DNA of 64,000 nucleotides from Alphaproteobacteria bacterium (GTDB lineage: Bacteria; Pseudomonadota; Alphaproteobacteria; Rs-D84): NCBI GenBank assembly GCA_017463185.1, contig JAFTPS010000003.1, positions 27,113 through 91,112 on the forward strand, given 5' to 3'. A program made the position numbers and the translations under genes. Position 1 is the stretch's first letter. Every line of letters starts with the position of its first letter. Under the pieces are notes generated by a model. That model worked only from the letters and a program-made list of their open reading frames with translations. It was not told where the DNA came from and ran no database searches. Below, piece after piece: positions 1 through 45,908 of this stretch.

Positions 1-1
1 A

Positions 2-802
2 AACATTTACAATAAATACGCGGGACGCGACACGCGATTCAAAATCATACGCCAGGAAAATTCTGGGCCCGCCAATGCGCGTAATCGCGGCTTAGGTATG
101 GCGCGTGGCGAATATGTACATTTTCACGATTGTGATGATTTTGTGGAACTGGATTATTATGAAAAAATGGTTGTGGCAATAAATCAAAGTGAGGCCGATA
201 TTATCTGTGGCGAGGTCAATGAACCAGGATATATGTTCCCAGATTTTAATCGTGTGCAAATCCTGGCGACATTAGAGGATAAAATCATAGTCCCCAAGGC
301 ACATTTGTTTCATGTTGTTTGGCGGTATGTGTATCGTCGTGAATTTTTAAGTGAACATAAATTACAATATCCCACCAATATGTTTATTGGCGAGGATACT
401 ATGTTTATGATGCGTACAACATACTATGCCAGGACAATTGCCACCGCCCCTGGTGCGGTTTATCACTGTGTCAGCGTGCCGACATCGCTGGGTAAAAATG
501 CCGGCAAAATTATGCGCGGACGCGCCAATGGTGATGCGCGTGAACACAGTGAATATGCCAAATTTATGGAACAAAGTGGTATGGCCCAGATTTTGAATCA
601 AATAAACCGCGGCAAAATTGTGGGGCGTACACGATATGAATTTCTGAAAATTCCATTTTTTATGAAAAAGTACTATTCCAATGGCGATATAAAATATTAT
701 GTACTGAATATTCCGCTGTTTATGCGGCGTCAGACGCACAATCGTATCCAGATTTTTATCTGTGGCATTTATGTGTTCCGAAAGTACACCCGCGGCGTAT
801 AA
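2..802 (+). CDS. glycosyltransferase family 2 protein (N-terminus cut by window edge)
   Basis: Frame open from nt 2; translation ...RFKIIRQENSGPANARNRGLGMARGEYVHFHDCDDF... shows GT2-type nucleotide-binding signature and DCDD (DxD-like); track ORF 98..802 is only the part after an internal ATG. Confidence 0.6.
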   Translation, partial: NIYNKYAGRDTRFKIIRQENSGPANARNRGLGMARGEYVHFHDCDDFVELDYYEKMVVAINQSEADIICGEVNEPGYMFPDFNRVQILATLEDKIIVPKAHLFHVVWRYVYRREFLSEHKLQYPTNMFIGEDTMFMMRTTYYARTIATAPGAVYHCVSVPTSLGKNAGKIMRGRANGDAREHSEYAKFMEQSGMAQILNQINRGKIVGRTRYEFLKIPFFMKKYYSNGDIKYYVLNIPLFMRRQTHNRIQIFICGIYVFRKYTRGV

Positions 803-831
803 GAATCCTGCGTATGCAGGATTCTTATACA

Positions 832-1611
832 TTATTCATAATAGCAATCGCCGTCGCTTATATCAAAATATCCAGTTTGGTCCTTGGCCGATGTCCCGTC
901 GGGCAGATAGCAATCGGCACTGGTTGTTTTGCTATATCCATTTGTTGTGGCAACGGCTGACGTAATCTCGCCCAGAGCTGAACAAGAAGTGCAATCCAGT
1001 AATGCGTAGTATGTTGATTCTGTTTGCACCAGGCCAGCGGCACTGTAAAAACCTGTGTTGCAGGTTGCCAAAGTTGTACCGTGATAATCGCAGATGCCGT
1101 CGGTGTTGCAACTTTTGTTGCGCCCTCCAAACAAAATTCCGGAATTATTTTGGTCTGCGGTCCAGCCTTCGCTGCCCGAACAAGTGGAACAACATTCAAT
1201 CTGTTCAAAATTTGTGATATTAAATGTTGTGCCTGATGCCTGGTACGGGTCAAAGTCTGTTGATATGTTCATATTACATAGTGTTGAATCCGCAAAAATT
1301 ATTTCCTGACACGGCGTCGTGCTGGTGAAACACAGTATTACACCATATTGAGGCTCGGACATATAATCATAAATGTCAAAAGCCCCACAAATTGGATAAT
1401 CGGTATATGGTGATGTAAAAGCAAGCAAGTCTGAACGGCAAACCGAGTATTCATTACAGCCTATTTTACCCCGATAACCGGAACTGCACATAGTTGTTTC
1501 GGCGCTGGACAATTCAGTGCTGGCACATGTTTTATAAAACATAACCGTTTGGTCCGCGCCCGCCACAAATGGCATGCCCAGGAACCCCGCGATTAGTAAA
1601 TATTTTTTCAT
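832..1611 (-). CDS. secreted cysteine-rich protein (signal peptide MKKYLLIAGFLGMPFVAGA)
   Basis: 259-aa ORF, N-terminal signal peptide, many Cys/Thr/Ser; RBS aaggagg 6 nt upstream; preceded by conserved leader element shared with two other Cys-rich protein genes. Confidence 0.5.
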   Translation of the reverse strand: MKKYLLIAGFLGMPFVAGADQTVMFYKTCASTELSSAETTMCSSGYRGKIGCNEYSVCRSDLLAFTSPYTDYPICGAFDIYDYMSEPQYGVILCFTSTTPCQEIIFADSTLCNMNISTDFDPYQASGTTFNITNFEQIECCSTCSGSEGWTADQNNSGILFGGRNKSCNTDGICDYHGTTLATCNTGFYSAAGLVQTESTYYALLDCTSCSALGEITSAVATTNGYSKTTSADCYLPDGTSAKDQTGYFDISDGDCYYE

Positions 1612-1760
1612 TCTTAAACCTCCTTTTCATTTTTTTGAATGAAAAAACCGTCGCAGAATTTAGACGGTTGGAGGTTCAGAACAATGATAAGATTGTATGG
1701 TGTATTCAGTATATTCCACCATCCTCCAACCATTTGTGGCTGGAAGTTATTTTTATTGCG
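1612..1760 (-). promoter_or_regulatory. conserved structured 5' leader (copy L1) with intrinsic-terminator hairpin upstream of Cys-rich secreted protein gene
   Basis: Sense (minus) strand: helix arm ggttggagg ... ~50 nt with conserved gaatatactgaata ... aacctccaacc, then hairpin ccgtctaaattctgcgacgg + tttttt 25 nt before RBS; same architecture at 27160-27365 and 33266-33470 with compensatory base changes. Confidence 0.45.
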
Positions 1761-2041
1761 AAGTGTTTATCGCAATACTTATCAGAGGTTCTGACACCCC
1801 GAAATAGCAATACGCCATTTCAAATAAAATGGTAGCATTATGGGGTATTAAAGTAAAGGCAAAAAAAACGCCGGGATTCAGATTGACAGCGGAATACAAC
1901 CCTAGTATAATATGCCTAATCCAAACCACCAATTGGATTAGGCATAAAAACACATTTGAAAACCTCAGGTTTCTGGGAGAAAACGACAAAATAAAAACCG
2001 CCGAATGCAAACGGTGGTTTAACTGACAAAAGGGGACGGCT

Positions 2042-2917
2042 ATGAAAAAGGTTGCGATATTGTATATAGCGCTGGGGCGTTATATTGTTTTTTGGAAAGA
2101 TTTTTTTGAATCGTGCCAGGCGAATTTATCCCCTTGTGAAAAGCATTATTTTATATGGACGGATAATACGGATTTTGATTACAGCGACATCCCCAATGTC
2201 ACGGTTATCCCCGCCCAGAAACGCGGCTGGCCGTATGATACACTGTTGCGGTTTGAAATGTTTTTGGGAATGGAAAAAGAATTAAAAAAATTTGATTACA
2301 TATATTTCTTTAATGCGAATTTTCAATTTGTTGCACCGGTGGATTTGGCGGAAATTACCCCGCGCGAATGGCATGACGGCCTGGTCGCGGGCAGTCATCC
2401 GGGACGCCGCGGCGATGTGCTGGCCGGTAATCCGGATTTGTTTGGCTATGAACGCCGTCCAGAATCAACCGCGTATGTCCCATTTGGCAAAGGCAAAGAT
2501 TATGTTTGTGGCGCATTTAATGGCGGAACAAGTGCAGCTTTCCTGACTATGTGTCAGGTGTTGGCGAAAAATGTCCAGATTGATTTGAAAAACGGCATTG
2601 TTGCGCGTGTGGACGATGAAAGTCATCTGAACGCGTATTTGATTGATAAAAAGTATTTATTGTGTGGGCGTGCCTATGGTTTCCCAGAAGGCAAGTTAAA
2701 GCACGTGAATCGTGTTGAAATGCCAATGATAAAGATTATTTCCCGGCACAAGGAAAGTCCAAAATATGGCGGTGTAAAATGGCTGCGTGGTCAGACAGAT
2801 AAAAAGATGCCCAACAATGCGTTTACGCGAAATATTATGCGACCGTTGTGCCACGGGGTCGCGCTGTTTATACCGATAAAAAAATATCGGTCACGGGTGC
2901 GCGGGTATTTTGGGTAA
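2042..2917 (+). CDS. glycosyltransferase family 6 (ABO/alpha-1,3-Gal(NAc)-transferase-like), bacterial NxN variant
   Basis: Strong similarity to ABO transferase blocks: FWKDFFES..., FGYERRPESTAYVPFGKGKDYVCGAFNGGT (cf. FTYERRPQSQAYIP..GGFFGGS), VDDESHLNAYLI (cf. WHDESHLNKYLL); DXD position reads FFNANF (NAN), as in metal-independent bacterial GT6. Confidence 0.75.
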   Translation: MKKVAILYIALGRYIVFWKDFFESCQANLSPCEKHYFIWTDNTDFDYSDIPNVTVIPAQKRGWPYDTLLRFEMFLGMEKELKKFDYIYFFNANFQFVAPVDLAEITPREWHDGLVAGSHPGRRGDVLAGNPDLFGYERRPESTAYVPFGKGKDYVCGAFNGGTSAAFLTMCQVLAKNVQIDLKNGIVARVDDESHLNAYLIDKKYLLCGRAYGFPEGKLKHVNRVEMPMIKIISRHKESPKYGGVKWLRGQTDKKMPNNAFTRNIMRPLCHGVALFIPIKKYRSRVRGYFG

Positions 2918-2957
2918 AGACCTTGACTTTTAATGGTTTTGTACATACCATATAGGT

Positions 2958-3767
2958 ATGACAAATAATAAAATGAATACTTTTTATCAGGATGCGATTA
3001 GAAGTCGCCGTGGCGATGCGACTAATATTCGCGAACCACGAATCCGTGGCTCTCAGCGCAATGTTTTGTTTGCAGATACGCCCGACGGTGCGCGTGTGTT
3101 TAAGTTCAGTTCGCCCGAATTAGTGGTCAAGGACGAAAAAATCAGTAATCAGTATAAAATGGCGGGGATTCCTGTGCCGAATATAACATCGCATCAGTAT
3201 CGTGGTCTGTCGTTTGAGGAATATCCGATAATCCCCGGTCGCACTTTGTACGAGGCTATTGGTGACGGCATCGGCGCCGATGATATTCGTCGCATTTATC
3301 GTCAGATTTTAGATAATTTTGCTAAAATGGCGCGGGTGCGGGCTGGGAGCCTGCCCCATGAAAATATCAATTTGGCGCACTATGTGGCGCGTGAGAATGT
3401 ATCAACGGCGAATAATCGCACGTTGGGCAATGTGATATGGATGCTGGTTTATCTGATGAACCTAGGTGCGGACAAGAATATAGGCCTGTTCCATTTTGAT
3501 ATCACACCCAAAAATGTGATTATATCGGACGACGGGCATTTGGCGGGCTTTATTGACATAGAAACGGTTGGCATTTGCAATAAAAACTTTGCGTTTGGGA
3601 TGATGGCGGCCAAGTATCAGCAACTGGGGTTTGATATAAATGAATTGGTTGATTACTATGAAAATATCACAGGCGACAAACTGAACCGCACACGGATTGC
3701 CACGATAAGCAATCTGAGCAATGCGGGCAAGGCATTTCTGTGGAAAAACGCACAGCGAAAGAGATAA
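2958..3767 (+). CDS. protein-kinase-like fold phosphotransferase (APH/choline-kinase-like)
   Basis: Brenner-type catalytic motif HFDITPKNVIISDDGHLAGFIDIE (HxDxxxxN...D); located in glycan locus next to GT6. Confidence 0.5.
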   Translation: MTNNKMNTFYQDAIRSRRGDATNIREPRIRGSQRNVLFADTPDGARVFKFSSPELVVKDEKISNQYKMAGIPVPNITSHQYRGLSFEEYPIIPGRTLYEAIGDGIGADDIRRIYRQILDNFAKMARVRAGSLPHENINLAHYVARENVSTANNRTLGNVIWMLVYLMNLGADKNIGLFHFDITPKNVIISDDGHLAGFIDIETVGICNKNFAFGMMAAKYQQLGFDINELVDYYENITGDKLNRTRIATISNLSNAGKAFLWKNAQRKR

Positions 3768-3906
3768 AATGTGGGGAATTTTTGTAAAAAAGTCCTTTGC
3801 CACCGATGGGGCAGGAAAAATCCCGCATTGCGGGATTGGTTGTTTTTGCTTAAATGCCATAAGGTCACTTGCTTTTTGTTGGCAAATAATTATAATAGTG
3901 TGCATT

Positions 3907-3983
3907 GCACCCGTGGCTTAACTGGATAGAGCATCGCCCTCCGAAGGCGGGGATTGCGCGTTCGAATCGCGCCGGGTGCGCCA
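3907..3983 (+). tRNA. tRNA-Arg (anticodon CCG)
   Basis: 77 nt cloverleaf: acceptor GCACCCG/CGGGTGC, anticodon stem TCGCC/GGCGG with loop CTCCGAA, T-arm GCGCG-TTCGAAT-CGCGC, discriminator G + encoded CCA. Confidence 0.8.
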
Positions 3984-4016
3984 TACTTCGCCAAGGCTTC
4001 GTATGGCGCGGCCACA
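3984..4016. repeat. conserved tRNA 3'-flank motif (acttcgc..gcttcgtatggcgcRgccaca), second copy at 38817-38859 after tRNA-Gly
   Basis: tacttcgccaaggcttcgtatggcgcggccaca after tRNA-Arg vs cacttcgcgtctgcgacgcttcgtatggcgcagccaca after tRNA-Gly. Confidence 0.4.
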
Positions 4017-4130
4017 ATCAGACCTTGATTTTTAGGGTGATTTATGGTATAATATTGACCGTGGATGCAGACAGACTGCGTCCGTTTTTTTATTTAAACA
4101 ACTGGTGACATAATGAAAAGGATTTTTTAT

Positions 4131-4628
4131 ATGTCACGACAAATTCAAATACGACGCGGAACAACCAGTGAACATGAAACATTTACCGGTGCAATTGGTG
4201 AAATCACAATGGATACGGATGCCAAGACCCTGCGGGTGCACGACGGGGAAACGGTGGGTGGCGTGCCGTTGGCGCGCGCCGACAGTGTGCCGGATATGAG
4301 TGGTGCGGACTATGTTGTTGCCTGGCAATCGCCAAGTGCAGAAAATAACTATACCTGGTATCGTAAATATAAATCCGGCTGGGTTGAACAAGGGGGATAT
4401 ACAAACAGCAGTACGGTCACCCTGCCCCTGGCTATGGCGGATACGCAATACAATATCCAGATTACCGGTGATGCAAAGTCAACCAATAACAATGTGTACA
4501 TTTTTGGGTGTCAAAGTCGTACGACAACCGGCTTTTCTATGCTGGGGAATGTTGTAAACGGCAGCAGCCAATCGTCAACCGCCAATGGCGCACAACGCTA
4601 TTGGTTTGTGTGTGGGTTTTCCGCATAA
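4131..4628 (+). CDS. phage tail-fibre-like protein with Mtd-N-like N-terminal domain
   Basis: N-terminus MSRQIQIRRGTTSEHETFTGAIGEITMDTDAKTLRVHDGETVGGVPLA closely matches the conserved N-terminal domain of Bordetella phage Mtd-type receptor-binding proteins (..QFRGGTTAQHATFTGAAREITVDTDKNTVVVHDGATAGGFPLA..); RBS aaagga before ATG 4131 (track start 4113 also possible). Confidence 0.5.
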   Translation: MSRQIQIRRGTTSEHETFTGAIGEITMDTDAKTLRVHDGETVGGVPLARADSVPDMSGADYVVAWQSPSAENNYTWYRKYKSGWVEQGGYTNSSTVTLPLAMADTQYNIQITGDAKSTNNNVYIFGCQSRTTTGFSMLGNVVNGSSQSSTANGAQRYWFVCGFSA

Positions 4629-4653
4629 AACTGGGCTTTCTTAGCCCAGTTTT
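4627..4653. terminator. bidirectional intrinsic terminator
   Basis: aaaactgggctttcttagcccagtttt between convergent genes. Confidence 0.6.
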
Positions 4654-6379
4654 ATCGTGTCGCGAATCCATTTTCGTCGCGCGGTGGAATTTTGAATAGT
4701 TGTCCCAGTTTGTGTTGTGTGGCATTATCGTCGGGCGCATAGACTAAATTTCCAGCCGTGGGAGAAAAAGTTAATTCACCAAATACTAATTTACCGTCTT
4801 TTGTTTCATAAAAATCAACACGAACAAAATCAAACGGTTCTGCCAGTTTTTCTGTAATTTCTATTAATTCGTTTAGAAAATCTGGACGTTCTATATCTGT
4901 TGAAATAATTCCCGCTATTCCATAATCAGACTGATTAAAGTCTAAATCAGACCAGTCGCGCGATTTTGTTTTTATCCGAATGTTATTGTGGCCATCCTGA
5001 TAACAGTTTAGGACTATAAATTCAACGCGCCCACCAAAACACCACATTTTATATTCAATATCTGTGCGAATGTCCACCATTTCACGGGCAATTACACGGG
5101 GTGGAATATATCTGTATTGCATTTCACAAAATAGTTCAGAATGATTATATAATAACCATTCTTTAACGGTTTGTTTTAGTTCCTGGGGAGAGAATTTTGT
5201 TTTATCAAAAACAAGTAAGTTTTGTCCGCTGCCCGCATTATAAGTAAGGACAAAAGATTGTGGTAATTTATCCAGTATAAACTCATCGCTGTTTTTATAG
5301 GTCGCATATAATTTTGGCAAATATTTATCACCAATTTTATCACAAACATATTTACGAACGGCCAGTTTGTCCGCACATTGTATTTTTAATGGTGTAACAT
5401 CAAACATACTGGCCCATATAACTTTGTCGCGAAATGTAGTTAGTTCCTCGGTCGGTAATTTGCCGGTGCGTTCATAAAAACGGTCGCGCAACAATATTGG
5501 CAACCGGTCCGCGCCGCAATAACGAACAATTTGTTGTCGGGACAGTGTATCAGAATAAACGATTGTTTGTTTCGTTGTCTGACGTCTTTTATAACTTAGT
5601 ATTTTTATACCGCAAAAGTATATATGGCGGCGACCATTTGGACAACGTTCTTTGTAAAATATTTTCATTGGAACCTTCCTGTGTTTGGTAATTTTATCTT
5701 GATTATGTGTTGCGATATATTGTAATTCAAAATCGCCGTTTGTTCTGTGTTCGCCCGGTGTTGGATACAGTGGGATTGTTTGCACCCCATATTTCCATGC
5801 GGCATAGTTATATGATAATTGGTCGCGCTTTGAATAGTTTTTTACCATATGCCACCATAAATTTAATGTTGATATGATTTCATTATGACGACGGAACATT
5901 ATATTTGTTTCACTCAGACCGTTGTTTTCAGGATATCCGTCGCGATGTAATTTTTTCATTTCGCGATTTACTATGTTTTTATGGTCTATGTGCAGGCGTT
6001 TTATTGTTTCTGCCTCGGCATAAATACAGTTGCGTTCAGGATGCATAGGAATTGCAATTTTAGTATTGTTTGCAATTAGTTTATTCGCTATATCAAATAT
6101 ATGATTGTTCAGGATTGATACATTTCCGTCCATCCATAAACTAATATCATATTCGGGAAACAGTATATGAGCATTGATTTTGTGCCAACGTGCGTTTTTA
6201 ACATTGCCATATTTATGACGCGCCAATTGGCGCACGACATATGGTCCAACATGTCCACACCGTATTAATTCGTGATTATCGGTGAACAGCACATAATCCC
6301 ACGATGGGTCAATGTATTTGTGTGTTGGCACGCTATCGTATCCGCCGGTAATACAAGTGTAGCATACTTTTTTGGTCAT
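4652..6379 (-). CDS. two-domain polysaccharide biosynthesis protein: N-terminal DUF616-type glycosyltransferase + C-terminal TupA-like ATP-grasp
   Basis: N-term CYTCITGGYD.. typical of DUF616/capsule GT family; C-term block (..KMWCFGGRVEFIVLNCYQDGHNNIRIKTKSRDWSDLDF..) resembles TupA-like ATP-grasp (teichuronopeptide-type amidoligase); 1-nt overlap with next gene. Confidence 0.5.
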   Translation of the reverse strand: MTKKVCYTCITGGYDSVPTHKYIDPSWDYVLFTDNHELIRCGHVGPYVVRQLARHKYGNVKNARWHKINAHILFPEYDISLWMDGNVSILNNHIFDIANKLIANNTKIAIPMHPERNCIYAEAETIKRLHIDHKNIVNREMKKLHRDGYPENNGLSETNIMFRRHNEIISTLNLWWHMVKNYSKRDQLSYNYAAWKYGVQTIPLYPTPGEHRTNGDFELQYIATHNQDKITKHRKVPMKIFYKERCPNGRRHIYFCGIKILSYKRRQTTKQTIVYSDTLSRQQIVRYCGADRLPILLRDRFYERTGKLPTEELTTFRDKVIWASMFDVTPLKIQCADKLAVRKYVCDKIGDKYLPKLYATYKNSDEFILDKLPQSFVLTYNAGSGQNLLVFDKTKFSPQELKQTVKEWLLYNHSELFCEMQYRYIPPRVIAREMVDIRTDIEYKMWCFGGRVEFIVLNCYQDGHNNIRIKTKSRDWSDLDFNQSDYGIAGIISTDIERPDFLNELIEITEKLAEPFDFVRVDFYETKDGKLVFGELTFSPTAGNLVYAPDDNATQHKLGQLFKIPPRDENGFATR

Positions 6380-7311
6380 TATATATTTTCTGCCTTTCGG
6401 AAAGATATTTTCAAAACAGGTATTTTATCAAAGATATAGGCTTTATAATTTTGAACAGAACGCAGGTTTTGATGATATATAGTACACAATGGAATTGATA
6501 AAAATGTAAAGCGAAAACATTTCTTATAATCAAAGCGTCGTGGGCTGTTATCCAGTGTAATATTATAACGATTGGCATTTGCAAAAACGGCATTTAGAAA
6601 ATCTGTATTTTGTGCATATGGAATTAGGTATTGGGTACCCTTTATGCGGCCTAAAGATGCTTTTTTAATGAAAGGAATTCCCTTTTTTAATGTTTCTAGT
6701 GGGTTGGCATAAATGATAAATCCAGCATCATTGCAACGGCTGTCTGAGTATGCGTATGATTTATAGCCGCGCTGTATTATAATACGCGATAGACGTATTT
6801 CGTATTTAAGAACAATGTTATCCTTGTCGTCTTGACGTTTTATATCGTTCATAAAATCATCAAAGAAATTTGATTGAAATATTTTTTGTGAGATTCCAAC
6901 AAACCAAGACTGAATATGTAATGGGATTATTTCGTCCGAATTACTGACCATACCAGTAAAATCCACGCCGCGGGATTCCAGGTCTTTTAATATTGGGCTT
7001 ATGTCATACAGTGGCCCCAGGACGGAATCATTTACCAAATACACCCAATCATAGTTTTCCAATATTTTGTTATCGCGGGCGTATTGATATGCGCGCTTGT
7101 ATGAACCAAAGTCATATTCCCCGTGGCGCGTCGCGGCGGCGTACAGCACATTTGGAATGCTTTTTATCTTGGCCAACTCGTTATCCGTTGTGTCGTTGTC
7201 CATTACAACAACTAAATCGCCCAGTCTTGATAATTCGCCCAGATAATATGTTAGCGTATCATCAACTGTGCCGTCGCGATCGTATGCAGCAAACAAAAAC
7301 AGACGTTTCAT
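6379..7311 (-). CDS. rhamnan-synthesis protein F (RgpF)-like glycosyltransferase
   Basis: N-term LFLFAAYDRDGTVDD...VVVMDNDTTD and overall pattern resemble RgpF family (PF05045-like); operonic with previous gene. Confidence 0.45.
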   Translation of the reverse strand: MKRLFLFAAYDRDGTVDDTLTYYLGELSRLGDLVVVMDNDTTDNELAKIKSIPNVLYAAATRHGEYDFGSYKRAYQYARDNKILENYDWVYLVNDSVLGPLYDISPILKDLESRGVDFTGMVSNSDEIIPLHIQSWFVGISQKIFQSNFFDDFMNDIKRQDDKDNIVLKYEIRLSRIIIQRGYKSYAYSDSRCNDAGFIIYANPLETLKKGIPFIKKASLGRIKGTQYLIPYAQNTDFLNAVFANANRYNITLDNSPRRFDYKKCFRFTFLSIPLCTIYHQNLRSVQNYKAYIFDKIPVLKISFRKAENI

Positions 7312-7460
7312 AATCCATTGCCCTTTTTGTACTAAATCGGGTGGGGTTCAAACAACTGGTGACGTTTTTACATCTGTGTGCGGTTGCACCGCCCCACCCG
7401 CGTGAAATTTAAAACCCCAGGGAATAAAATAAAACGCCACCTGATGTATATCCAAGGTGG

Positions 7461-7548
7461 CCGGGAAGTTAAGACTATCATACAAGCGAAATGACACCAC
7501 CGACCTTTGGAACGGAGTGTTCCTGTGGTATAATCGGTGGCTTCCCGG
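7461..7548. ncRNA. candidate structured RNA element, copy 1 of tandem pair
   Basis: gCCGGGAAGtt...gaaatgac-CCACCGA-...cggagtg..cctgtNgtat..-TCGGTGG-CTTCCCGGc; two nested helices; same architecture 234 nt downstream with compensatory substitutions. Confidence 0.35.
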
Positions 7549-7694
7549 CAAATAAAAAGCCGAGTTATAAAGAAATCGCTTGTAAGAGAGCCGTCTTACT
7601 GGCCCCGAACCCTATCCCTAAGGCTCGGCACAGATATTACAGGATAAATTTCATATTTTCAAGACATAAAAATAGTCGCCAATTAAAAAGGCGA

Positions 7695-7777
7695 CCGGGA
7701 AGTTAAGAAAATCACACGCTGAAATGACCCCACGGGCTTTCGGAGTGGGCCCTGTTGTATGGCCCGTGGCTTCCCGG
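7695..7777. ncRNA. candidate structured RNA element, copy 2 of tandem pair
   Basis: aCCGGGAAGtt...gaaatgac-CCACGGGC-...cggagtg..cctgtNgtat-GCCCGTGG-CTTCCCGGt; inner helix differs from copy 1 but stays complementary (covariation); closing pair g-c in copy 1 becomes a-t. Confidence 0.35.
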
Positions 7778-7971
7778 TGAATCCCGAGAACACTGACGCG
7801 CAAGGTGGTGCGCGTCACAACGTGTGGACTTTCTTACGGTCCAAACCCACATTTTACAATGCGGTTCAATCTGATGTTACACAATTGATTGGCTAATCGC
7901 AAGTCATAAATTGAACTTGCGGGATGTAATCTGTTCGGATACACTGAGTCCATAAAAGGAGATAAGAGCCC

Positions 7972-8427
7972 ATGCATAAGATTATGACTTTTTCCATGGT
8001 GTTGGGGTTATGTGCCTGTAACAGTGTTTATATGAAACCAAATTCGTTGGATGCTGGACACGTGGTTTATGCGGACCGTGGCGGGTATTCTATGCGCCGC
8101 AGTATCAAGGAAACAATGGAAAATCGTGGCTATCGCGTTGTTGTTGGGCGTGCCACTGTAAACGAGAATGCAACGGACGAGAGTATTAGCGTTGATATAG
8201 ATAAAAATATTATACCTGTTGATGTAAAATATGTAATCAAGGTCAATGAACGCAATGAGAAGTTCCGGCCGATTTGGTGTGTGTTTAATGGTTTCTGGTG
8301 GTGGAATTTTAATGTTTCAATCGCAAATCAGGAAACTGGTGACGAAATTGTGTCTTGGCGTGGACGCGGATGCGCGAACAGTTCTGTGCGTTTGTTGAAC
8401 AGGATACTGGATAAAGTCGAAAAATAA
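7972..8427 (+). CDS. lipoprotein (lipobox LGLCAC)
   Basis: Signal peptide + Cys lipobox; RBS aaaggaga; followed by intrinsic terminator. Confidence 0.55.
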   Translation: MHKIMTFSMVLGLCACNSVYMKPNSLDAGHVVYADRGGYSMRRSIKETMENRGYRVVVGRATVNENATDESISVDIDKNIIPVDVKYVIKVNERNEKFRPIWCVFNGFWWWNFNVSIANQETGDEIVSWRGRGCANSSVRLLNRILDKVEK

Positions 8428-8674: not shown

Positions 8675-9089
8675 TTTGCCTTTCCTTTGTATTATAAAAA
8701 ATTAAATGCCGGGTTTTCTGGTGCCAGGTCCCCGGCCGACCCCGCAATCGCTAAAGCGAATGTGGTCAACAATTGCCAACCATATTCAAAGCCATATTAG
8801 GCAGCCATTGCAAGGCGAACATTGTCGTTCGCAGCGATTCTATCGCCATTCAGTTTTTAGTTAGTGTTTTACGACAACCATGTCGGATTCAATCTTTTGC
8901 CTTTATTTCGCCTGTCGAATCTATGTCAGCCCCATTTGCAAATATGACATCAATCATATCAGTAAATGGTGGAGCTGTGGGGTACCGCCCCCCAGTCCAA
9001 AACGATTATTCCACAAAGACTTCAGAATCATCACCGTTTACACGGCCGTATTATTATAGGCTTTTGGACTGGAAATTGCAAGTTTTTAA

Positions 9090-10681: not shown

Positions 10682-11305
10682 ATGGTATCATTAAAAGGTA
10701 CACAGACAGAAAAAAATCTGTTGATTGCATTTGCTGGTGAATCCCAGGCGCGTAACCGCTATTGCTTTTATGCGTCTCAGGCAAAAAAGGAAGGGTATCA
10801 GGCGATTTCTAAAATCTTTTTGGAAACAGCAGAACAGGAAAAAGAACACGCATCCCGTTTGTTTAAATTTCTGGAAGGTGGCGATTTGGAAATTACAGCA
10901 TCTTTTCCAGCGGGCAAAATTGGTAATACTTTGGAAAATCTGAATGCCGCCGCATATGGCGAACACGAAGAAAATACCGATATGTATCCAAAATTTGCAC
11001 AAATTGCCGCCCAGGAAGGTTTTCCGGCAATTGCAGAAATTCTGAAAAACATCGGCTATGCGGAACGCTATCACGAATCTCGTTTCCGTGCATTGATTGA
11101 AGCAATTGAAAATGGTACTTTGTTCAAACAGGACAAAATCGTTATGTGGCGTTGCACAAACTGTGGTATGTGGCATATTGGGACCGAGGCCCCGAAAGTA
11201 TGCCCGGCGTGCCTGCACGAACAAGGGTATTTCATCAGCGAAGGCACTACATCCCGTTGCGACACGAACGAAGGTTTCTGTGAATATAGTGTGATTGATG
11301 AATAA
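10682..11305 (+). CDS. rbr: rubrerythrin (ferritin-like diiron domain + C-terminal rubredoxin-like CxxC..CxxC)
   Basis: MVSLKGTQTEKNLLIAFAGESQARNRY..EQEKEHA...YGEHEE...WRCTNCGMWHIGTEAPKVCPAC; RBS aaaggaga before 10682. Confidence 0.85.
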   Translation: MVSLKGTQTEKNLLIAFAGESQARNRYCFYASQAKKEGYQAISKIFLETAEQEKEHASRLFKFLEGGDLEITASFPAGKIGNTLENLNAAAYGEHEENTDMYPKFAQIAAQEGFPAIAEILKNIGYAERYHESRFRALIEAIENGTLFKQDKIVMWRCTNCGMWHIGTEAPKVCPACLHEQGYFISEGTTSRCDTNEGFCEYSVIDE

Positions 11306-11314
11306 AAAAACACA

Positions 11315-11340
11315 AACGCCCAATTGGGCGTTTATTTCTT
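11315..11340 (+). terminator. intrinsic terminator
   Basis: aaacgcccaattgggcgtttatttcttt. Confidence 0.6.
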
Positions 11341-11397
11341 TACTGTTTTTTAGGTTTTCATAAACCTTGAATATTTTATAAAACGTATTATATTTAT

Positions 11398-13161
11398 TTG
11401 GCAATGAAACAATATATTTTACCTCTTCGTGATTTGGTGGTGCATCCGGGGCTGACTGTGCCGGTGTACATTGATAATCCTGTGTCTGTATCGTGCCTGA
11501 AAGGGGCCGCGGCGGCGGACCGCCGTATTGTCTTGGTGCCACAGCACAGTTGGACCTATCCGACCACGCCCGACGACATTTACAATGTTGGCACGGTTGG
11601 CGACATTATCCAAGTTTTGCACATGCCCGATGGGGCGGTACATGCAATTGTTTGCACAACCGCGGCGGTCACGCTGGGGAATATAGAAGTGACAGATGGC
11701 CTGTTTACGGCGGACGCCACACCAATTGAAATTGCGACCGATGAAACCGCGCCGGAAACAATTGCGTTGCGTGATATGATTGCGGAAAATGTCCAGGCCA
11801 TGTCGTCGGTGCGTAAATTCAAAATGGATAAATTGCGCAGTGTGGTAAATAACTATCCCCTGCCCGCGTTTGTGGATTCTGTGGTTCAAATGATGGACAT
11901 TGATACCGATAATGCATTAAAGATTTTATGCGCGCCGTCATGGCGGGACAAATTGATTCTGTTGTTGGAACAGATTAAATTGATGGGTGAAACCGCTAAA
12001 ATAGAAGATTCTATAAATCGTCGTATTCACCAGCAAATGGAAAACGGCCGACGCGAAGCTATTTTACAGGAAAAAATGCGTGCCCTGCAAAAGGAAATGG
12101 GTGAAGACAGCGAGGAAATGGATTCCGAAAATATTCGCAAGCGGATTGTAAAATCGTCTATGCCGACCGAGGCCAAAGAAAAAGCAATGAGCGAATGGAA
12201 GCGTATGCGGTCGTTGTCGCCTATGTCAAATGAGGGCGGATTATTAAAAACATATTTAGACGAATTGTTGGCTATGCCATGGGGTAAAATGGACACAATT
12301 CCAATTGATTTGAATGTGGCGCGAAATGTTTTAGATTCCGAGCATTCCGGAATGACTGGCGTTAAAGAACGAATTTTGGAACACATTGCCGTTATGAAAA
12401 AAACTGGCGGCAACCAGGGCAGTATTTTATGTTTTGTTGGCGCACCGGGTGTGGGTAAGACTTCGCTGGGTAAATCAATTGCTGCGGCGTTGGGACGCAA
12501 GTATCAGCGAATTTCCCTGGGCGGTATTTCTGACGAGGCGCATTTCCGTGGTCATCGCAAGACCTATATTGGCGCACAGACTGGGCGTATTATGGATGCG
12601 TTAAAGCGTTGCAAAACAAACAATCCCGTGATTGTTCTGGATGAAATTGATAAAATGGGCCGCGATTGGCGTGGCGACCCGGAAAGTGCCCTGTTGGAAA
12701 TTCTGGACCCAGAACAGAACAAGACTTTCCGCGACCATTATTTAGAGGTGGATTTTGACCTGTCCAATGTGTTGTTTATTGCGACTGCAAACAGTCTGAA
12801 TTTATCCAATGCATTAAAGGACCGTATGGAAATTATTGAAATTCCGGGCTATTCAATTGATGATAAGGTTAAAATTGCACGTGAACATCTGATTGCGCGG
12901 GCAGCCCGTGATACTGGGTGGAATCCGGATGATATTGTAATCTTTGACGATGCAATTCGTCATATAATTCAAAACTATACATCCGAACAGGGGGTGCGTG
13001 AATTGCAACGTGAACTGACCGCGATTTTGCGTCGTGCATTGCTGGAAAACGATTGTGCGGATGTACGGACTGAATTTACCCCGGCCAAGATTGATGAATT
13101 GTTGTCGGTGCGTAAATCGGCCGGATTTTCCAAGAAAATTGGCTTTGGGGTACGGTTATGA
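11398..13161 (+). CDS. Lon-like ATPase: Lon N-domain + AAA+ module, no S16 protease domain
   Basis: LPLRDLVVHPGLTVPVYI (Lon N), Walker A GAPGVGKTSLGKSIA, Walker B VIVLDEIDKM, sensor/arginine finger regions align with E. coli Lon 1-585; ORF stops (..KIGFGVRL*) exactly where the protease domain would start and tsaB begins 4 nt earlier. Confidence 0.7.
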   Translation: MAMKQYILPLRDLVVHPGLTVPVYIDNPVSVSCLKGAAAADRRIVLVPQHSWTYPTTPDDIYNVGTVGDIIQVLHMPDGAVHAIVCTTAAVTLGNIEVTDGLFTADATPIEIATDETAPETIALRDMIAENVQAMSSVRKFKMDKLRSVVNNYPLPAFVDSVVQMMDIDTDNALKILCAPSWRDKLILLLEQIKLMGETAKIEDSINRRIHQQMENGRREAILQEKMRALQKEMGEDSEEMDSENIRKRIVKSSMPTEAKEKAMSEWKRMRSLSPMSNEGGLLKTYLDELLAMPWGKMDTIPIDLNVARNVLDSEHSGMTGVKERILEHIAVMKKTGGNQGSILCFVGAPGVGKTSLGKSIAAALGRKYQRISLGGISDEAHFRGHRKTYIGAQTGRIMDALKRCKTNNPVIVLDEIDKMGRDWRGDPESALLEILDPEQNKTFRDHYLEVDFDLSNVLFIATANSLNLSNALKDRMEIIEIPGYSIDDKVKIAREHLIARAARDTGWNPDDIVIFDDAIRHIIQNYTSEQGVRELQRELTAILRRALLENDCADVRTEFTPAKIDELLSVRKSAGFSKKIGFGVRL

Positions 13162-17026: not shown

Positions 17027-20000
17027 ATGGAAAAAAAGCGCAGTTTCCTGGGATTTTTGGCAAGTTTATTTTTGGTATTTTTTACCGCCAATGCGTTCGC
17101 GGCGGGCTATTCGTGTCCTACATATAAGTTGTACACATCGTGTAGCGAGAATTATTTCTTGGCTGATACCGATGTGTCTGACAGTGCTACTTCGGCGGGA
17201 AATGCATGTTCGGCCTGTCCTGGAAATTCTACAAACACTGTTTCAACTGCGACATCCTGTACCTGTAAAACGGGGTATAGTGTTGGCGGTGCAACCACAA
17301 CGACTGGTACGGCGTGTTCGGCCAATACATACACCGTTACTTATAACAGTAACAAGCCAAGTGGTGCTTCTGGCACAATTAGTGGCAGCACAGCGAACAG
17401 CACTCATACATATGGCACGGCCAAGGCATTGACAACAAACGGGTACAGTTTGACCGGGTGGACGTTTGCAGGCTGGAATACCAAGGCGGACGGTACAGGT
17501 ACATCTTATGCAAATGGCGCAAGTGTAACGAACCTGACCAGTACTTATAATGGAACGGTCACGCTGTATGCGAAATGGACTGTGAATACATTGACCATAA
17601 ACTATAACACCAGCAGTGCAACCAGTGGTACGCCATCTGTGTCACAACAGACATGTTCTTATGACGGAGCATGTACAGCGGCAACCCAGGGTACTATGGT
17701 TAAAACCAAGATGGTGTTCCTTGGTTGGACCAAGACATCTGGTGGAACAACCGTTGATTATGCGGCGGATGCATCTATCAAGAACATAATCAGCAGTGGT
17801 TCAATAACACTGTATGCAGTGTGGAAAACGCCGACATGTTCTGCGACCAAGGGTACTGCGACGTTAAAGAGTGTAACCAACAACACGCCAGTGTGTACTA
17901 TTACCTGTTCTACTGGGTACACTCAGGGCGGTGGCACGAATGCAACTGGGACGTTTGAAGTAAACGGTTCTGCCGGTGCAACCAGTGCAAGTGGCACATG
18001 TAAAGCGATTACATTTACAGTTGCATACACCAAAGACCCAAGTTCTGCAACGGGTACGGTTCCAAGTAATCAGACATGTACGTATGATGGCACATGTACT
18101 GCGGCGACGAATCCATTCTCTCATACGGGCTATATGTTTAACAAGTGGTCTTGTACCGCCAGCAGTGGCAGTTGCGCCGCCAGCACATATGCATCGGGTG
18201 ATAGTCTGAAAAATGCAACATCTGTTGCAGGTGCGACGATTACTCTGAAATCTACTTGGGATGCGAACACCATTACCCTGAACTGGGCAAATGGCGGACA
18301 TGGTACAGCGCCGACCAGTCCCGCATCGTGTAAGTATGACAGCACATTCACCATGCCGGCCGCGATGACCGCAACGGGTTATACATTTAATAAGTGGTCT
18401 GTGAATGGCAAAACGTTCAATGCGGGTACAACCGGTGTTGCGTGTACCAGTGCCAATCTGGGGGTAAGCAGTGGAGCCGTCACAATTACAGGTACCTGGA
18501 CCGCAAACAACTATTCCATTAGCCTGGACAATGCAAGCGCGACAAATAATGGGACAGCGACCATTTACACCACATATAAAACAAATGTGTATTTGGACGA
18601 CGCGCGCAGCAAGGCTATGACAGCATCCGCGAATGCTATCACAGAACCGACGCGCGCGTACACGGTCACATATGATGGCAATGGTGGTTCGGTGTCCGCA
18701 ACCAGTGCGACGGCAACATATACATTCAATGGTTATTACAATACGTCCAGCAATGGCACACAATACATTAACTCAAACGGGAATATCACATCCGATGGTT
18801 TGAACGCAGCTAAGGATGTGGATGATAATACAACAACCTGGTACGCACAATGGACCAGTAAATCTGTGACATTGCCAACACCGACCAGAACGGGCTATAC
18901 ATTTAAAGGCTGGGCAGAATCCTCAACCGCGACCGGTGGAGATACGGGTTCATATACCCCGACCAAGAATGTCACATTATATGCAATCTGGTCGCAGAAT
19001 ACCTATGCTGTCGCCTATTCCTGTGGTGATGGAGCTGGGACCGCCCCCAGTTCCACGACCGCGACATATGACAACTCATTTACACCGGCGGCTAACACAT
19101 GCACACGCAGTGGATATAACTTTGCCGGATGGACGGTAAGTGGCACAAGTGATACCAAGACCGCAGGTTCGGCATTTACTTGGACATATACTGAGGGCAA
19201 AACATTTACCGCCAAATGGACAGCCGAGGGCGAGGCGGAAATCAACTATGTCACAAATGGTGGCACAATCAATGGTTCGTACATGGCGGCGTGTAATGTT
19301 GAAACAGCAACATTTAGTTTGCCGACAGATGTCACAAAACCGGGTTATACATTTAATGGATGGTACACCGCATCCACTGGTGGGACCAAGGTGACAAGTG
19401 TTGTAAAGGGCACATGCACATCCGCGCTGACATACTATGCACAATGGACCGCATGCGACAGCACAACCGCGGGTGCTTGTAATTGTACCAGCAGTCAATA
19501 TCCAGACAATGGGACATGTACAAATTGTTCGCACAGCTGTGCCAGCGTCACTGGATATACACTGGGTACATATAATGTATGTGAGGCGGAAACGGATTTA
19601 TGGTGTTATCGCAATTGTACAACCACTGATATTCCAAATTCTACCGGTGTGTCTGGGATTGTTACTAAGGGCGGAAAAATTTTATGTGCAGCAACGACGT
19701 GTGCAGATGATTTCTATATATCAGGCAGTGGCTGTCAGTCATGTCCAGAAAATGCGACATGCGGGGGCGAAGCCGAATGGTCATGTGATGAGGGATATAA
19801 AAAGACCGCCAATGGCCTGGGGTGTGAACCAAATACATACACCGTCACATTGAATGCGAATGGTGGTACGGGTGGGACTGCGTCCGTCACGGCAACTTAT
19901 AACAGCCTGTTGCAAACGGCGACTATGCCAGAGCGCGACAACTATAACTTCCTGGGGTACTATGATACGGATGCAACCACGGGTGGCAATCAGTATTATG

Positions 20001-26583: not shown

Positions 26584-27159
26584 TTAATTGCTATAATAGC
26601 AATTACTGGTGAATGTGTATGTGCCGGTAGTGTCGGACATAGATGAATTTGCCGGTATATAGCACGATGTGATGGCGGTACTGCCCGCGGCACTGGTGCC
26701 ATAAACGCCACCAGATGATGGGCAACGGGTACAGGTTGTGCCGTCACCATAATATCCCGCGCGACACTGATATTCACAGGCCGGAATTATCAGTTCATCG
26801 TTGCAACGTATTTGTTGCGTGTTTCCATAATCGGTCCAGGTGTTTTCTGGGCACAGATCTGGACAGGTTGGTGTTATTGGTTCTATTGGCGACAATGTTC
26901 TTGTACAGGTGCCGATTGTATAACTTTCGGTGCTGGATATAGTAATGGTTTCCGTGCTGCGGGTATAACCACTGGCACAGGTGTTGCAGTCCGTGTATGT
27001 GGCGGTGCCACAGTTGATAACGCGGTTAACATCACTGCATTCAGTTGTAGAGCCGCCGGTTGATTCAATAAAACACATGATTATGGTATCTAGGGCCCAT
27101 GCATTATGCGACAGACCAATCGCCCCCAAGACGATTGGGATAAAGATTTTTTGATTCAT
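26584..27159 (-). CDS. secreted cysteine-rich protein
   Basis: 191 aa, signal peptide MNQKIFIPIVLGAIGLSHNAWA, Cys/Thr-rich; RBS aggaga; preceded by conserved leader L2. Confidence 0.5.
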   Translation of the reverse strand: MNQKIFIPIVLGAIGLSHNAWALDTIIMCFIESTGGSTTECSDVNRVINCGTATYTDCNTCASGYTRSTETITISSTESYTIGTCTRTLSPIEPITPTCPDLCPENTWTDYGNTQQIRCNDELIIPACEYQCRAGYYGDGTTCTRCPSSGGVYGTSAAGSTAITSCYIPANSSMSDTTGTYTFTSNCYYSN

Positions 27160-41155: not shown

Positions 41156-41426
41156 GTTCGCCACCGTCCCGTACAACATCAAATATAGACTGATAATTTT
41201 TACGCACAAACAGGTTGTCAAAATCGCCTTCGTATCCCAGCGCCTGCGATAACTTAATCAGTGCAGTTAATGATATTTCCCCGGTTCGTTCAAATCGCTT
41301 GATTGAGCCCAAAGATACCCCAGAACGCTGGACCAATGTCATTTGCGACATCTTGGCGGTGCGTCGAACGGTACGGAACCTGTCTTTTATTCTGGTTTTG
41401 ATAGATAATATATTATCTATATTCAT
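41145..41426 (-). CDS. hipB: HTH XRE-family antitoxin HipB
   Basis: 93-aa Cro/C1-type HTH (..MSQMTLVQRSGVSLGSIKRFERTGE..) immediately upstream of and overlapping hipA. Confidence 0.65.
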   Translation of the reverse strand: MNIDNILSIKTRIKDRFRTVRRTAKMSQMTLVQRSGVSLGSIKRFERTGEISLTALIKLSQALGYEGDFDNLFVRKNYQSIFDVVRDGGEHAK

Positions 41427-41638
41427 TGTTTGTGCCTGTGTTTAGATATTATATTGTCTATAATTATAATGCAGCGTTGTAGATTTTGCAATAAAAAATC
41501 ATACAAAATCGTTTACAAACGACGGAAAACACGATAAATTATAAAAGCGCCAAGCAAAGTGTCAGGCAAACTGATAAAAACTGCTGAAAATCGGGTTGAA
41601 ATGGGCAGAAAAATGCCAAAAATGGCGTAAACACAGTC

Positions 41639-41654
41639 CCCTTCGCCCGCACCA
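41639..41654 (+). repeat. 16-nt duplicate of tRNA-Gly 3' end (cccttcgcccgcacca): candidate attR of tRNA-Gly islet
   Basis: Identical to 38801-38816; 2.8 kb downstream of the tRNA. Confidence 0.5.
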
Positions 41655-41751
41655 AAAATAGAGCCGACCATTGTGGTCGGATTTATTTTTGGGTTGCCTC
41701 AACAAAAATATCCCCGAACGAGTCGCGCCAGCAGCGGGACGGTTTGGATTT

Positions 41752-43092: not shown

Positions 43093-43095
43093 TGA

Positions 43096-44808: not shown

Positions 44809-44940
44809 TTAATATCCTTTCTGGAATATGTTGTGAATGTTTTCACAAAGCAATAATTAAATCAACCGCTTTTGCGCATCTTACCAATGCACCAGGTCCA
44901 TAGAGAAAGAAAAAAACAAAAAACTTTACAAACAGGAAAT

Positions 44941-45810: not shown

Positions 45811-45908
45811 TTATATCGCAATAAAGCCGATGTGCTATCTGGGAAAAATATTGACTTTCTGGGAATTATCTGGTAACATCTGGGAAAAATTATAAAAAGA
45901 GTATAAAG

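Follow-up and report, generated by a model that had tools for sequence, protein, structure and literature searches.

A lineage-core GT6 gene beside a putative phage-derived cassette for amidated uronic acids in a gut alphaproteobacterium

Five sugar-handling genes lie within the first 7,311 nucleotides (nt) of a 64,000-nt stretch of alphaproteobacterial DNA (GenBank assembly GCA_017463185.1, contig JAFTPS010000003.1, positions 27,113 to 91,112 of the forward strand); we call the whole stretch the window and its first 7,311 nt the interval. On balance we favour the following reading. A glycosyltransferase family 6 (GT6) gene and a kinase gene form a core operon, and beside this operon lies a phage-derived cassette that would install an amidated uronic-acid decoration on a host surface polysaccharide, changing a phage receptor or the serotype. 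The reading draws on domain identities, conserved catalytic residues, synteny, the insertion itself, a link to phage genes and the recurrence of a domain pairing, from which we infer every substrate and product, the glycan targeted and the biological consequence. The protein-coding genes concerned are the following (lengths in amino acids, aa).

2–802, plus strand: GT2 glycosyltransferase, 3′ part (PF00535, E 1.7e-16)
2042–2917, plus strand: GT6 glycosyltransferase of the metal-independent NxN type, 291 aa (PF03414, E 7.9e-20)
2958–3767, plus strand: small-molecule or sugar kinase of the aminoglycoside phosphotransferase (APH) fold, 269 aa, or 264 aa if translation starts at 2973 (PF01636, E 1.4e-11)
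4113–4628, plus strand: phage tail protein, 171 aa, Mtd_N and a tail-fibre-like C-terminal domain (PF18454, E 1.8e-15)
4652–6379, minus strand: putative bifunctional fusion protein, 575 aa, GT116-like domain (residues 1–222) and TupA-like ATP-grasp amidoligase domain (residues 280–575) (Pfam, structure model and homology)
6379–7311, minus strand: RgpF-like glycosyltransferase, 310 aa (PF05045, E 4.4e-24)

Core gene order and strain-specific insertions

A sequence-only reading of the interval had recognized the partial GT2 gene, the GT6 gene, the kinase gene, the fusion of DUF616 and ATP-grasp domains and the RgpF-like gene, and had joined all five into one surface-glycan locus. Each gene is where that reading had placed it and scores above its Pfam cut-off, and a role in surface glycans is sensible at the level of the families. 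The single locus did not survive comparison, with separate insertions on both sides of a core GT6 gene. We compared twelve related species loci for synteny around GT6 (loci are numbered with the prefix L, the source contig of the window being L001). Most of them share a backbone in the order ACC, HU, AhpC, MGMT, Amidase_3, GT6, a variable slot, orf151, Rbr, orf162 and Obg. Amidase_3 stands on the GT6 flank in 10 of the 12 loci, about 60–350 nt away in eight and at a greater distance in L009 and L016; no Amidase_3 was found in the other two, L010 and L014. GT6 is a lineage-core gene at a fixed position.

Between Amidase_3 and GT6, the window genome carries an insertion made up of a toxin–antitoxin pair, the GT2 gene and a gene for a Cys-rich protein. 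The GT2 gene, complete on the source contig with 318 aa (L001 7805–8761), occurs at this position in none of the 12 related loci. The Gp49/HI1420 toxin–antitoxin pair (L001 5516–6125, about 2–2.5 kb upstream of the window start) was also undetected in all 12, so GT2 and the Cys-rich gene may have come with a mobile element. On the other side of GT6, the variable slot lies between a tRNA-Arg gene and the lipoprotein gene orf151, and its insert in the window spans 3984–7971, about 4 kb. The slot measures 88 nt between the same tRNA and orf151 in L009, the nearest species, whose GT6 is 85% identical; in L015 it holds a GT2 gene and a small-RNA-like element. The GC content is 0.355–0.387 over 4.5–7 kb, compared with about 0.43–0.47 in the flanks. 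We conclude that the five sugar-handling genes are a patchwork and not a single coherent locus, because GT6 is core and is flanked by two separate strain-specific insertions, one with the GT2 and Cys-rich genes and the other with the genes for the tail protein, the fusion and the RgpF-like protein.

Predicted terminators divide the interval into separate transcription units. A promoter at 1883–1911 and a hairpin at 3819–3837 frame GT6 and the kinase as a two-gene unit, and similarity to the nearest species begins at 1905. The Cys-rich gene, the tRNA, the tail-protein gene and the terminators add to what the sequence-only reading had listed. Together with the borders of the variable slot, the features in question are:

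797–830, no strand: terminator-like hairpin of 15 pairs where the GT2 and Cys-rich genes converge (hairpin prediction)
832–1611, minus strand: Cys-rich secreted protein, 259 aa, with an N-terminal signal peptide (read off the sequence)
1883–1911, plus strand: consensus sigma-70 promoter, TTGACA-17-TATAAT, upstream of GT6 (12 of 12 matches)
3819–3837, plus strand: terminator-like hairpin closing the GT6–kinase unit (hairpin prediction)
3907–3983, plus strand: tRNA-Arg(CCG), left border of the insertion slot (tRNA prediction; synteny with L009)
7972–8427, plus strand: orf151, conserved putative lipoprotein of 151 aa, right border of the slot (syntenic in L009, L015, L018 and L019)

The phage-linked insert and its fusion protein

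The tail protein encoded in the insert 3′ of tRNA-Arg matches phrog_9648 ‘tail protein’ (1.2e-12) and phrog_1396 ‘tail fiber’ (6.7e-5) in PHROG and is 41.5% identical to the N-terminal two-thirds of Mtd from Bordetella phage BPP-1. A 17-nt direct repeat encloses 4110–7346, that is, the tail-protein, fusion and RgpF-like genes; its two copies are the only ones in 64 kb, where 0.04 would be expected, and the pair may be a recombination or attachment scar.

4093–4109, plus strand: 17-nt direct repeat TTYAAACAACTGGTGAC, left copy (repeat search)
7347–7363, plus strand: 17-nt direct repeat TTYAAACAACTGGTGAC, right copy (repeat search)

The three genes recur together in another metagenome (L085 and L086). 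Their order there is the RgpF-like gene, the fusion gene (protein P0004) and a convergent Mtd_N tail-protein gene, with chromosomal genes on the opposite side and, beyond the tail-protein gene, genes for Bbp19, a portal or head–tail connector, a T7-type terminase, DnaB and helix–turn–helix (HTH) proteins, so that the three-gene block lies at the edge of a phage-derived region. Identity between the window and L085 is 40% for the RgpF-like protein, 47% for the fusion over its full length and 52% for the tail protein, and in both places the tail-protein gene is convergent with the fusion gene, 22–23 nt from the fusion stop codon. The repeat TTYAAACAACTGGTGAC was not found in L085. The phage genes of L085 are also present on an IMG/VR viral contig (L128). 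In a third fusion lineage (P0027; L088 and L089), a convergent tail-protein gene again follows, and its product shares the C-terminal domain. DUF616 genes were found on 37 IMG/VR loci, three of them also with a TupA domain; in one locus (L111) a DUF616 gene and a TupA gene stand side by side and adjoin a gene for a family-B DNA polymerase. DUF616-like glycosyltransferase genes are present in isolated Cellulophaga and Synechococcus phages as well.

Insertion at a tRNA, atypical base composition and flanking repeats are all three present for the window insert. A position at the edge of a prophage fits L085 and L086; in the window just the tail-protein gene remains. The cassette is intact and identical in six samples. 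With moderate confidence, and judging from sequence, we regard 4110–7346 as the probable surviving cargo end of a prophage.

The fusion and RgpF-like genes belong to one operon, given that the RgpF-like stop codon overlaps the fusion start codon by 1 nt. RgpF is a family of rhamnan synthesis; the window protein scores 85.5 bits against PF05045 and aligns with model positions 2–213 of 503 only. In the fusion, residues 39–197 match TOD1_MUCI70/DUF616 (E 6.4e-16, 59 bits against a cut-off of 21.4, profile positions 121–289 of 314) and residues 331–563 match ATPgrasp_TupA, PF14305 (E 4.6e-27, 95.5 bits against a cut-off of 25). A structure model with a predicted local distance difference test score (pLDDT) of 91.6 shows two domains, and its Foldseek neighbours are ATP-grasp ligases; a sequence search of the PDB with the fusion gave no match even at E 1.

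The closest guide to function is Cj1438 of Campylobacter jejuni HS:2, in which a glycosyltransferase and a TupA-like ATP-grasp ligase also share one polypeptide. Its C-terminal part, Cj1438C, has a TupA-like fold and is fused to a GT2 domain; with ATP it joins serinol phosphate or ethanolamine phosphate, as an amide, to the C6 carboxylate of the glucuronic acid at the chain end. The GT2 domain accepts the amidated glucuronate only. The ATP-grasp half of the window fusion aligns with Cj1438C, whose sequence was taken from the supplement of a paper, at 28% identity (E 1e-22), and the two share R-V-D...G-E-L-T-F; R520, D522, E535 and T537 are kept. Unlike Cj1438, the window fusion has a DUF616/GT116-like domain instead of GT2, lacks the 127-residue middle domain and has a Thr for the Lys of the Gly-rich loop; it also lies in a phage-derived islet and not in a capsule locus with genes for serinol phosphate or ethanolamine phosphate and a HAD phosphatase. 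We considered whether the Thr, Thr379, marks the decay of a dead ATP-grasp domain and rejected this, since intact proteins throughout a clade share the change (13 of the 27 other sequences aligned at this position have Thr or Ser). The fusion had been taken to suggest an amino-acid-decorated glycan. As the characterized homologue joins amino-alcohol phosphates to glucuronate, ‘amide-decorated uronic acid’ is the better-founded term.

For the N-terminal domain, the founding GT116 enzyme RGGAT1/MUCI70 of plants belongs to the same Pfam family (TOD1_MUCI70, formerly DUF616). RGGAT1 transfers galacturonic acid onto rhamnose, which fits both the neighbouring RgpF-like gene and the fused, uronate-directed ligase. 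The window domain differs from it in being bacterial or phage-borne, in having no membrane anchor and in matching the profile partially. An apparent ‘DUF616’ match in an antiphage study proved to concern DUF6161 and was discarded.

The sequence-only reading had called the fusion unusual, a description that does not hold if it is taken to mean unique. A search of 1.84 billion representatives returned 14,145 relatives of either domain, and among the top 150 there are 27 further 50%-identity representatives with both domains, in addition to the analogous Cj1438. Together with eight found earlier, 35 proteins carry both, 20 in the order DUF616–TupA and 15 in the order TupA–DUF616; RgpF–DUF616 and GT2–TupA fusions also exist. 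That such fusions arose independently in either order is a strong argument for a common substrate of the two activities.

Two copies of an element resembling sRNA-Xcc1 lie in the 660 nt of non-coding DNA that separate the RgpF-like gene from orf151:

7454–7553, minus strand: sRNA-Xcc1-like element, copy 1, inside the variable slot (structure and repeat comparison)
7686–7778, minus strand: sRNA-Xcc1-like element, copy 2 (RF02221, 30.5 bits with a gathering threshold of 53, E 0.0031)

They are about 95 nt each and 74% identical. An alignment of five copies (the two from the window and those of L015, L010 and L085) predicts a three-stem fold with 26 pairs, seven of which show compensatory changes. 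In L015 and L085 the element is found with inserted glycan genes, and the empty slot of L009 lacks it. We rejected the idea that these repeats are attachment sites flanking the islet, both copies being on one side.

The Cys-rich protein of the left insertion (832–1611) has no match in Pfam, NCBIfam, PHROG or PADLOC and is not a glycan enzyme. A Cys-rich protein, orf212 (5975–6613), sits just outside the RgpF–fusion block of L085; it matches window 26584–27159 (minus strand) at 30% identity (E 2.6e-15) and, weakly, the 832–1611 protein (30% over 117 aa, E 3.6e-4). This Cys-rich family is without a database family.

The GT6 enzyme and the neighbouring kinase

The window GT6 matches PF03414 with 71.3 bits against a cut-off of 25. 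It aligns with the structure of BoGT6a from Bacteroides ovatus (4ayj; E 1.2e-40, 35% identity) and, at about 1e-16, with the human A and B transferases GTA and GTB. Some 90 full-length clusters at 56–84% identity share with it the same C-terminal tail. We aligned 85 subfamily clusters with BoGT6a and GTA, and 28 of these in a second alignment. Clustered at 90% identity, the subfamily alone numbers about 85 clusters, and about 38 species-level genomes carry it, so the rarity that had been ascribed to bacterial GT6 enzymes is relative.

BoGT6a has NxN in place of DxD, and its Tyr13, Lys231 and Arg243 bind the diphosphate in the metal’s place; the BoGT6a papers assign binding of uridine diphosphate (UDP), of the diphosphate and of the sugar, and catalysis, to this set of residues, and the catalytic Glu is common to all known GT6 enzymes. 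The equivalents are kept in the window protein. NAN had been noted in place of DVD, and it is indeed present as N91-A92-N93. Together with R70, D192, E193 and K237, these three residues are invariant in all 85 clusters; Y14 is found in all 82 clusters that cover its column, and every one of the 28 sequences in the second alignment has R249, which corresponds to BoGT6a R243. Loss of the E303 equivalent, or of any GT6 profile match, had been named as grounds for dropping the assignment; the profile match is present, and E193 is the equivalent of the catalytic Glu (GTA E303, BoGT6a E192). The suggestion of a metal-independent enzyme gains from Y14, K237 and R249, which are the residues expected to stand in for the metal. 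On our reading, the enzyme is a retaining, metal-independent glycosyltransferase of the BoGT6a mechanistic type and is predicted to be active.

The acceptor site is a different matter. The residues shared there by BoGT6a, GTA and GTB are His122, Thr134, Tyr153, Trp189 and Glu192; the window enzyme keeps the His, Tyr and Glu and has replaced Trp189 and Thr134, so that the A/B pattern is incomplete. The positions that differ are listed by BoGT6a residue and GTA equivalent, with the role of each and the residue in the subfamily or window enzyme.

Trp189 (GTA W300), acceptor contact in every solved GT6: Val in 81 of 85 clusters, Val190 here
His190 (GTA H301), binding of donor O6′: Asp in 83 of 85 clusters, Asp191 here
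Thr134 (GTA T245), acceptor contact: Pro in 54 of 85 clusters; Gly in 9 of 85, this protein among them
Ile228 (GTA A343), the fucose-accommodating position: Ser
Donor-selectivity triad, Leu-Gly-Gly in GTA, Met-Gly-Ala in GTB and Ala-Gly-Gly in BoGT6a: Cys-Gly-Ala (Cys156-Gly157-Ala158)

These replacements, Val190, Asp191 and the Gly at GTA T245 (Pro in most of the subfamily), leave the proposal of an ABO-like epitope unsupported, and the changes at these positions hold across the subfamily. The acceptor site is unlike that of ABO and alpha-Gal enzymes; we therefore do not predict an A or B antigen, which is probably not what the enzyme makes. The alignment with BoGT6a, GTA and GTB that had been suggested as a way to read donor specificity leads to a triad that matches neither GTA nor GTB fully. 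Leu266 and Gly268 of GTA select N-acetylgalactosamine (GalNAc), Met266 and Ala268 of GTB select galactose (Gal). Ala158 is of the Gal type, yet the small Cys156 leaves room, and the His that would bind donor O6 is Asp191. The donor is probably a galacto-configured UDP-sugar.

BoGT6a (PDB 4ayj and 4cj8), which makes the A antigen, is among the closest known enzymes. The two have in common the GT-A fold, NxN, the catalytic residues (Glu, Arg, Asp and Tyr) and the pair of basic residues near the C terminus that stands in for the metal; they differ in Trp189 to Val, His190 to Asp, Thr134 to Gly, Ile228 to Ser and Ala-Gly-Gly to Cys-Gly-Ala. Both also end in a tail resembling lipid-binding domains: in BoGT6a it is the C-terminal 17 residues, truncated in the published work, that show this resemblance, and in the window protein residues 250–291 form a basic, hydrophobic tail that is conserved in the subfamily and about 25 residues longer than that of BoGT6a. 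As in human GTA and GTB and in bovine alpha-1,3-galactosyltransferase, the equivalents of E303, R188, D302, H233 and K346 are kept. The Ala at the GTA-268 position is that of GTB, as read from an alignment with 3sx3. It is also that of alpha-1,3-galactosyltransferase, which has a His-Ala-Ala triad. Unlike the vertebrate enzymes, the window GT6 has no DxD (hence the predicted metal independence) and no transmembrane stem, has W300 and H301 replaced and carries Cys at the GTA-266 position; it is unlikely to bind the H antigen or N-acetyllactosamine in the same mode.

Elsewhere, four further genomes of alphaproteobacteria (L020, L021, L036 and L046) have GT6 next to RgpF-like and GT2 genes. A true polysaccharide setting is seen in MT838506.1 (L127, 1–7692), a record from human faeces labelled ‘UNVERIFIED: Bacteriophage sp.’, where genes for a TupA ATP-grasp protein, two GT2 enzymes, Wzm, Wzt with Wzt_C, and GT6 form a co-directional cluster of the O-polysaccharide type. 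We considered this record as a case of phage co-carriage of GT6 and TupA and rejected it; it is most likely bacterial DNA in a virome.

The kinase gene begins 40 nt after GT6 and is co-transcribed with it as a two-gene operon, as far as the sequence indicates. Its model (pLDDT 93.4) is structurally closest to aminoglycoside APH(3′) kinases (TM score about 0.62, 13–18% identity), and the catalytic residues K49, H179, D181, N186 and D200, which supply the Lys, the HxD motif, the Asn and the Asp of the DFG-like motif, are present. The family is small, with 37 clusters, and confined to the lineage. A sequence comparison with the PDB gave choline kinase LicA (E 0.054) as the sole hint, and a Pfam search at E 10 added nothing further. 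The enzyme probably phosphorylates a sugar hydroxyl or a small amino-alcohol; that it makes the amine phosphate for the ligase, or caps a chain as WbdD does, is speculation. In L009, two tandem genes for APH-fold kinases (10937–12558) follow GT6 where the window has one; they are weakly similar to it, and one aligns at 29%.

Mechanism, alternatives and meaning

In the mechanism that we consider most likely, GT6 would use its lipid-binding-like tail to reach the inner membrane face, where a UDP-sugar would donate a galacto-configured hexose, in alpha linkage, to a cell-surface glycan. The low-GC insert of about 4 kb would be what remains of a cargo cassette from a prophage; its tail-protein gene is convergent with an operon that runs from the RgpF-like gene into the fusion gene. 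By family analogy, the RgpF-like protein and the DUF616 domain would attach a rhamnose-type sugar and a uronic acid, and the ATP-grasp domain would use ATP to convert the C6 carboxylate of the uronate to an amide with an amine. In one form of this scheme, the ligase amidates a uronic acid that the DUF616 domain has added; in the other, as in Cj1438, the uronate to be amidated is one that the chain already contains, and the DUF616 domain then continues the chain from there. The outcome would be a changed serotype or phage receptor, in the style of lysogenic conversion.

Prophage serotype-conversion modules, such as those of the Shigella Gtr/Oac phages, gtrABC of Salmonella phage P22 and that of Pseudomonas phage D3, lie at the prophage edge and alter the receptor or serotype. 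The window cassette is like them in having a few glycan-modifying genes, a tRNA as insertion site and a receptor-binding tail gene close by. Unlike the Gtr/Oac-type modules, its enzymes are a cytoplasmic GT-A type and an ATP-grasp ligase, not a bactoprenol-linked Gtr flippase and transferase or acetyltransferases, and its prophage is reduced to one tail-protein gene. By analogy, the fusion may work like Cj1438 with another glycosyltransferase family, and the cassette would resemble serotype-conversion modules in position, not in chemistry.

Several observations weigh against the favoured reading. On the phage side, neither an integrase nor other phage genes were found in the window, by Pfam in the larger open reading frames (ORFs) of 14–52 kb or by tblastn with the L085 phage proteins over all 64 kb. 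The phage-derived region of L085 itself seems rearranged, its terminase pieces being split by DnaB and HTH genes on the opposite strand. The viral contig L128 ends 44 nt past its tail-protein gene, before the expected position of a cassette; 41 other viral loci with related tail proteins have no DUF616, TupA or RgpF within 8 kb; and in a fourth fusion lineage (L087) there is no convergent tail-protein gene. On the side of the enzymes, no bacterial DUF616 protein has been characterized, there is no amine-phosphate synthesis gene or HAD phosphatase nearby, and Thr379 takes the place of the Lys that stands ahead of the Gly-rich loop in Cj1438C and in most relatives. For the operon, the kinases near GT6 in relatives are 29–38% identical, a loose pairing, and GT6 scores 236.7 bits with NCBIfam NF041524, slightly under the subfamily cut-off of 250.

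The observations on L128, L087 and the other viral loci are what an ordinary chromosomal glycan islet would lead one to expect, in which the RgpF–fusion operon never was phage cargo and the tail-protein gene is an unrelated phage scar. The small-RNA-like elements and the tRNA could then mark a general insertion hot spot, as the GT2 gene in the same slot of L015 would suggest. We nevertheless think this unlikely, in that the three-gene arrangement recurs at 40–52% protein identity in a genome with the rest of a phage and in similar form in a third lineage, the 17-nt repeat pair surrounds all three genes, and DUF616 and TupA genes are common on viral contigs and present in isolated phages. If the cassette did arrive with a phage, its glycosyltransferases and ligase might instead serve the particle by modifying the tail or other virion proteins; phage-encoded virion glycosylation is known in mycobacteriophages, and the enzymes are tightly linked to a tail-protein gene in three lineages. 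This is the least probable of the alternatives: the enzymes stay intact and identical in six samples where the other virion genes are gone, which fits a benefit to the host; they are of cytoplasmic types with no secretion signal that can be read from their sequences; and the characterized homologue Cj1438C acts on a polysaccharide.

The single coherent surface-glycan locus of the sequence-only reading, in which GT2, GT6, the kinase, the fusion and the RgpF-like protein build an A/B-like, amino-acid-decorated glycan, can point to five glycan-family enzymes inside 7.3 kb, to the neighbourhood of GT6 with RgpF-like and GT2 genes in four genomes and to the pairing of GT6 with a TupA ATP-grasp protein in the O-polysaccharide cluster of L127. 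It is nonetheless improbable. The genes have different histories, GT6 being core and the rest strain-specific insertions; GC content differs among the pieces; the tRNA, the phage tail-protein gene, the secreted-protein gene and terminators interrupt the series; the acceptor residues of an A/B synthase are lost; and no flippase (Wzx), polymerase (Wzy), ABC-exporter, priming-transferase or sugar-nucleotide genes were found in the window ORFs scanned with Pfam, which include the larger ones at 14–52 kb, with 52.4–64 kb outside the scan. The cassette’s chemistry has its own alternative, in which the ATP-grasp domain does not amidate a sugar and is either inactive or an amino-acid or peptide ligase with, for example, a teichuronopeptide-like or polyglutamate product. 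Thr379 speaks for this, the nearest solved structures (LysX/ArgX, RimK and RizA) are peptide or amino-acid ligases, and the family takes its name from TupA of teichuronopeptide synthesis. We find it very doubtful all the same: Thr or Ser is kept at this position across a clade of intact proteins, the remaining catalytic residues are kept, the sole biochemically characterized relative is a glucuronate amidoligase, and the repeated fusion to glycosyltransferase domains points to a sugar substrate. We therefore retain the core GT6–kinase operon beside a phage-derived, uronate-amidating cassette as the preferred reading.

The host is an uncultured gut alphaproteobacterium near Candidatus Enterousia, as judged from related genomes and their NCBI names. 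A permuted alphaproteobacterial transfer-messenger RNA lies at 8707–9085, and identical proteins are on deposit as ‘MAG: Alphaproteobacteria bacterium’ (MAG, metagenome-assembled genome). At species level the closest genomes are MAGs of gut origin (goat colon, yak caecum, horse, mouse and human), and several carry the name Candidatus Enterousia. On the source contig, the genes 5′ of GT2 are the Gp49/HI1420 toxin–antitoxin pair, Amidase_3, MGMT, AhpC, HU and ACC, with no other glycan genes among them. PADLOC defence models gave no match for the seven interval proteins scanned, a set that comprised all except the GT2 fragment.

Other parts of the window hold genes of separate interest. A giant ORF of 3099 aa at 17027–26326 (plus strand), with four Listeria–Bacteroides repeat domains (PF09479, E 4.4e-49), probably encodes a surface adhesin, and a compact Cas9 (973 aa, HNH and RuvC) at 48319–52208 (minus strand) adjoins Cas1, indicating a type II CRISPR–Cas locus. 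An accessory-gene cluster at 40070–46967 comprises genes for a HipA-like toxin kinase (40070–41221), a Slam surface-lipoprotein assembly modifier (41752–43092), a 570-aa protein without a family match that follows Slam and is possibly its cargo (43096–44808), a Hypoth_Ymh protein and a Fic-domain protein (45909–46967). The Lon homologue at 11398–13161 (plus strand) has 587 aa only, with substrate-binding, AAA and lid domains and no Lon_C protease domain on record; the gene after it is of the TsaD family, and the same short form of Lon is kept in L009, L015, L018 and L019.

Nothing here is categorically new or overturns current knowledge, and every biochemical step is one that we infer. On its sequence, the window GT6 would be placed in the GT6 family and in its metal-independent class, and should not be filed as an A/B synthase. 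Natural antibodies are shaped by the A, B and alpha-Gal epitopes, which are products of GT6 enzymes, and the gut bacteria that present such epitopes are only partly known; a distinct GT6 clade fixed in an alphaproteobacterial lineage of animal guts is a possible source of non-ABO epitopes of the alpha-galactosyl type. That DUF616 and TupA domains have been fused repeatedly, and in either order, gives a strong hint of what bacterial DUF616 proteins do. The pairing of a glycosyltransferase with an ATP-grasp ligase, linked to a tail gene, suggests that gut phages may carry uronate-amidating enzymes, a chemistry so far shown only in the Campylobacter capsule. As a tentative picture of the whole, a gut phage may have carried, behind its receptor-binding tail gene, a hitherto undescribed receptor-remodelling cassette that neutralizes or re-decorates an acidic surface sugar by amidation and that was kept after the rest of the prophage was lost, next to a core GT6 whose specificity may be new and non-ABO. 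If true, such amidation would give lysogenic conversion and superinfection exclusion a chemical route of a new kind.

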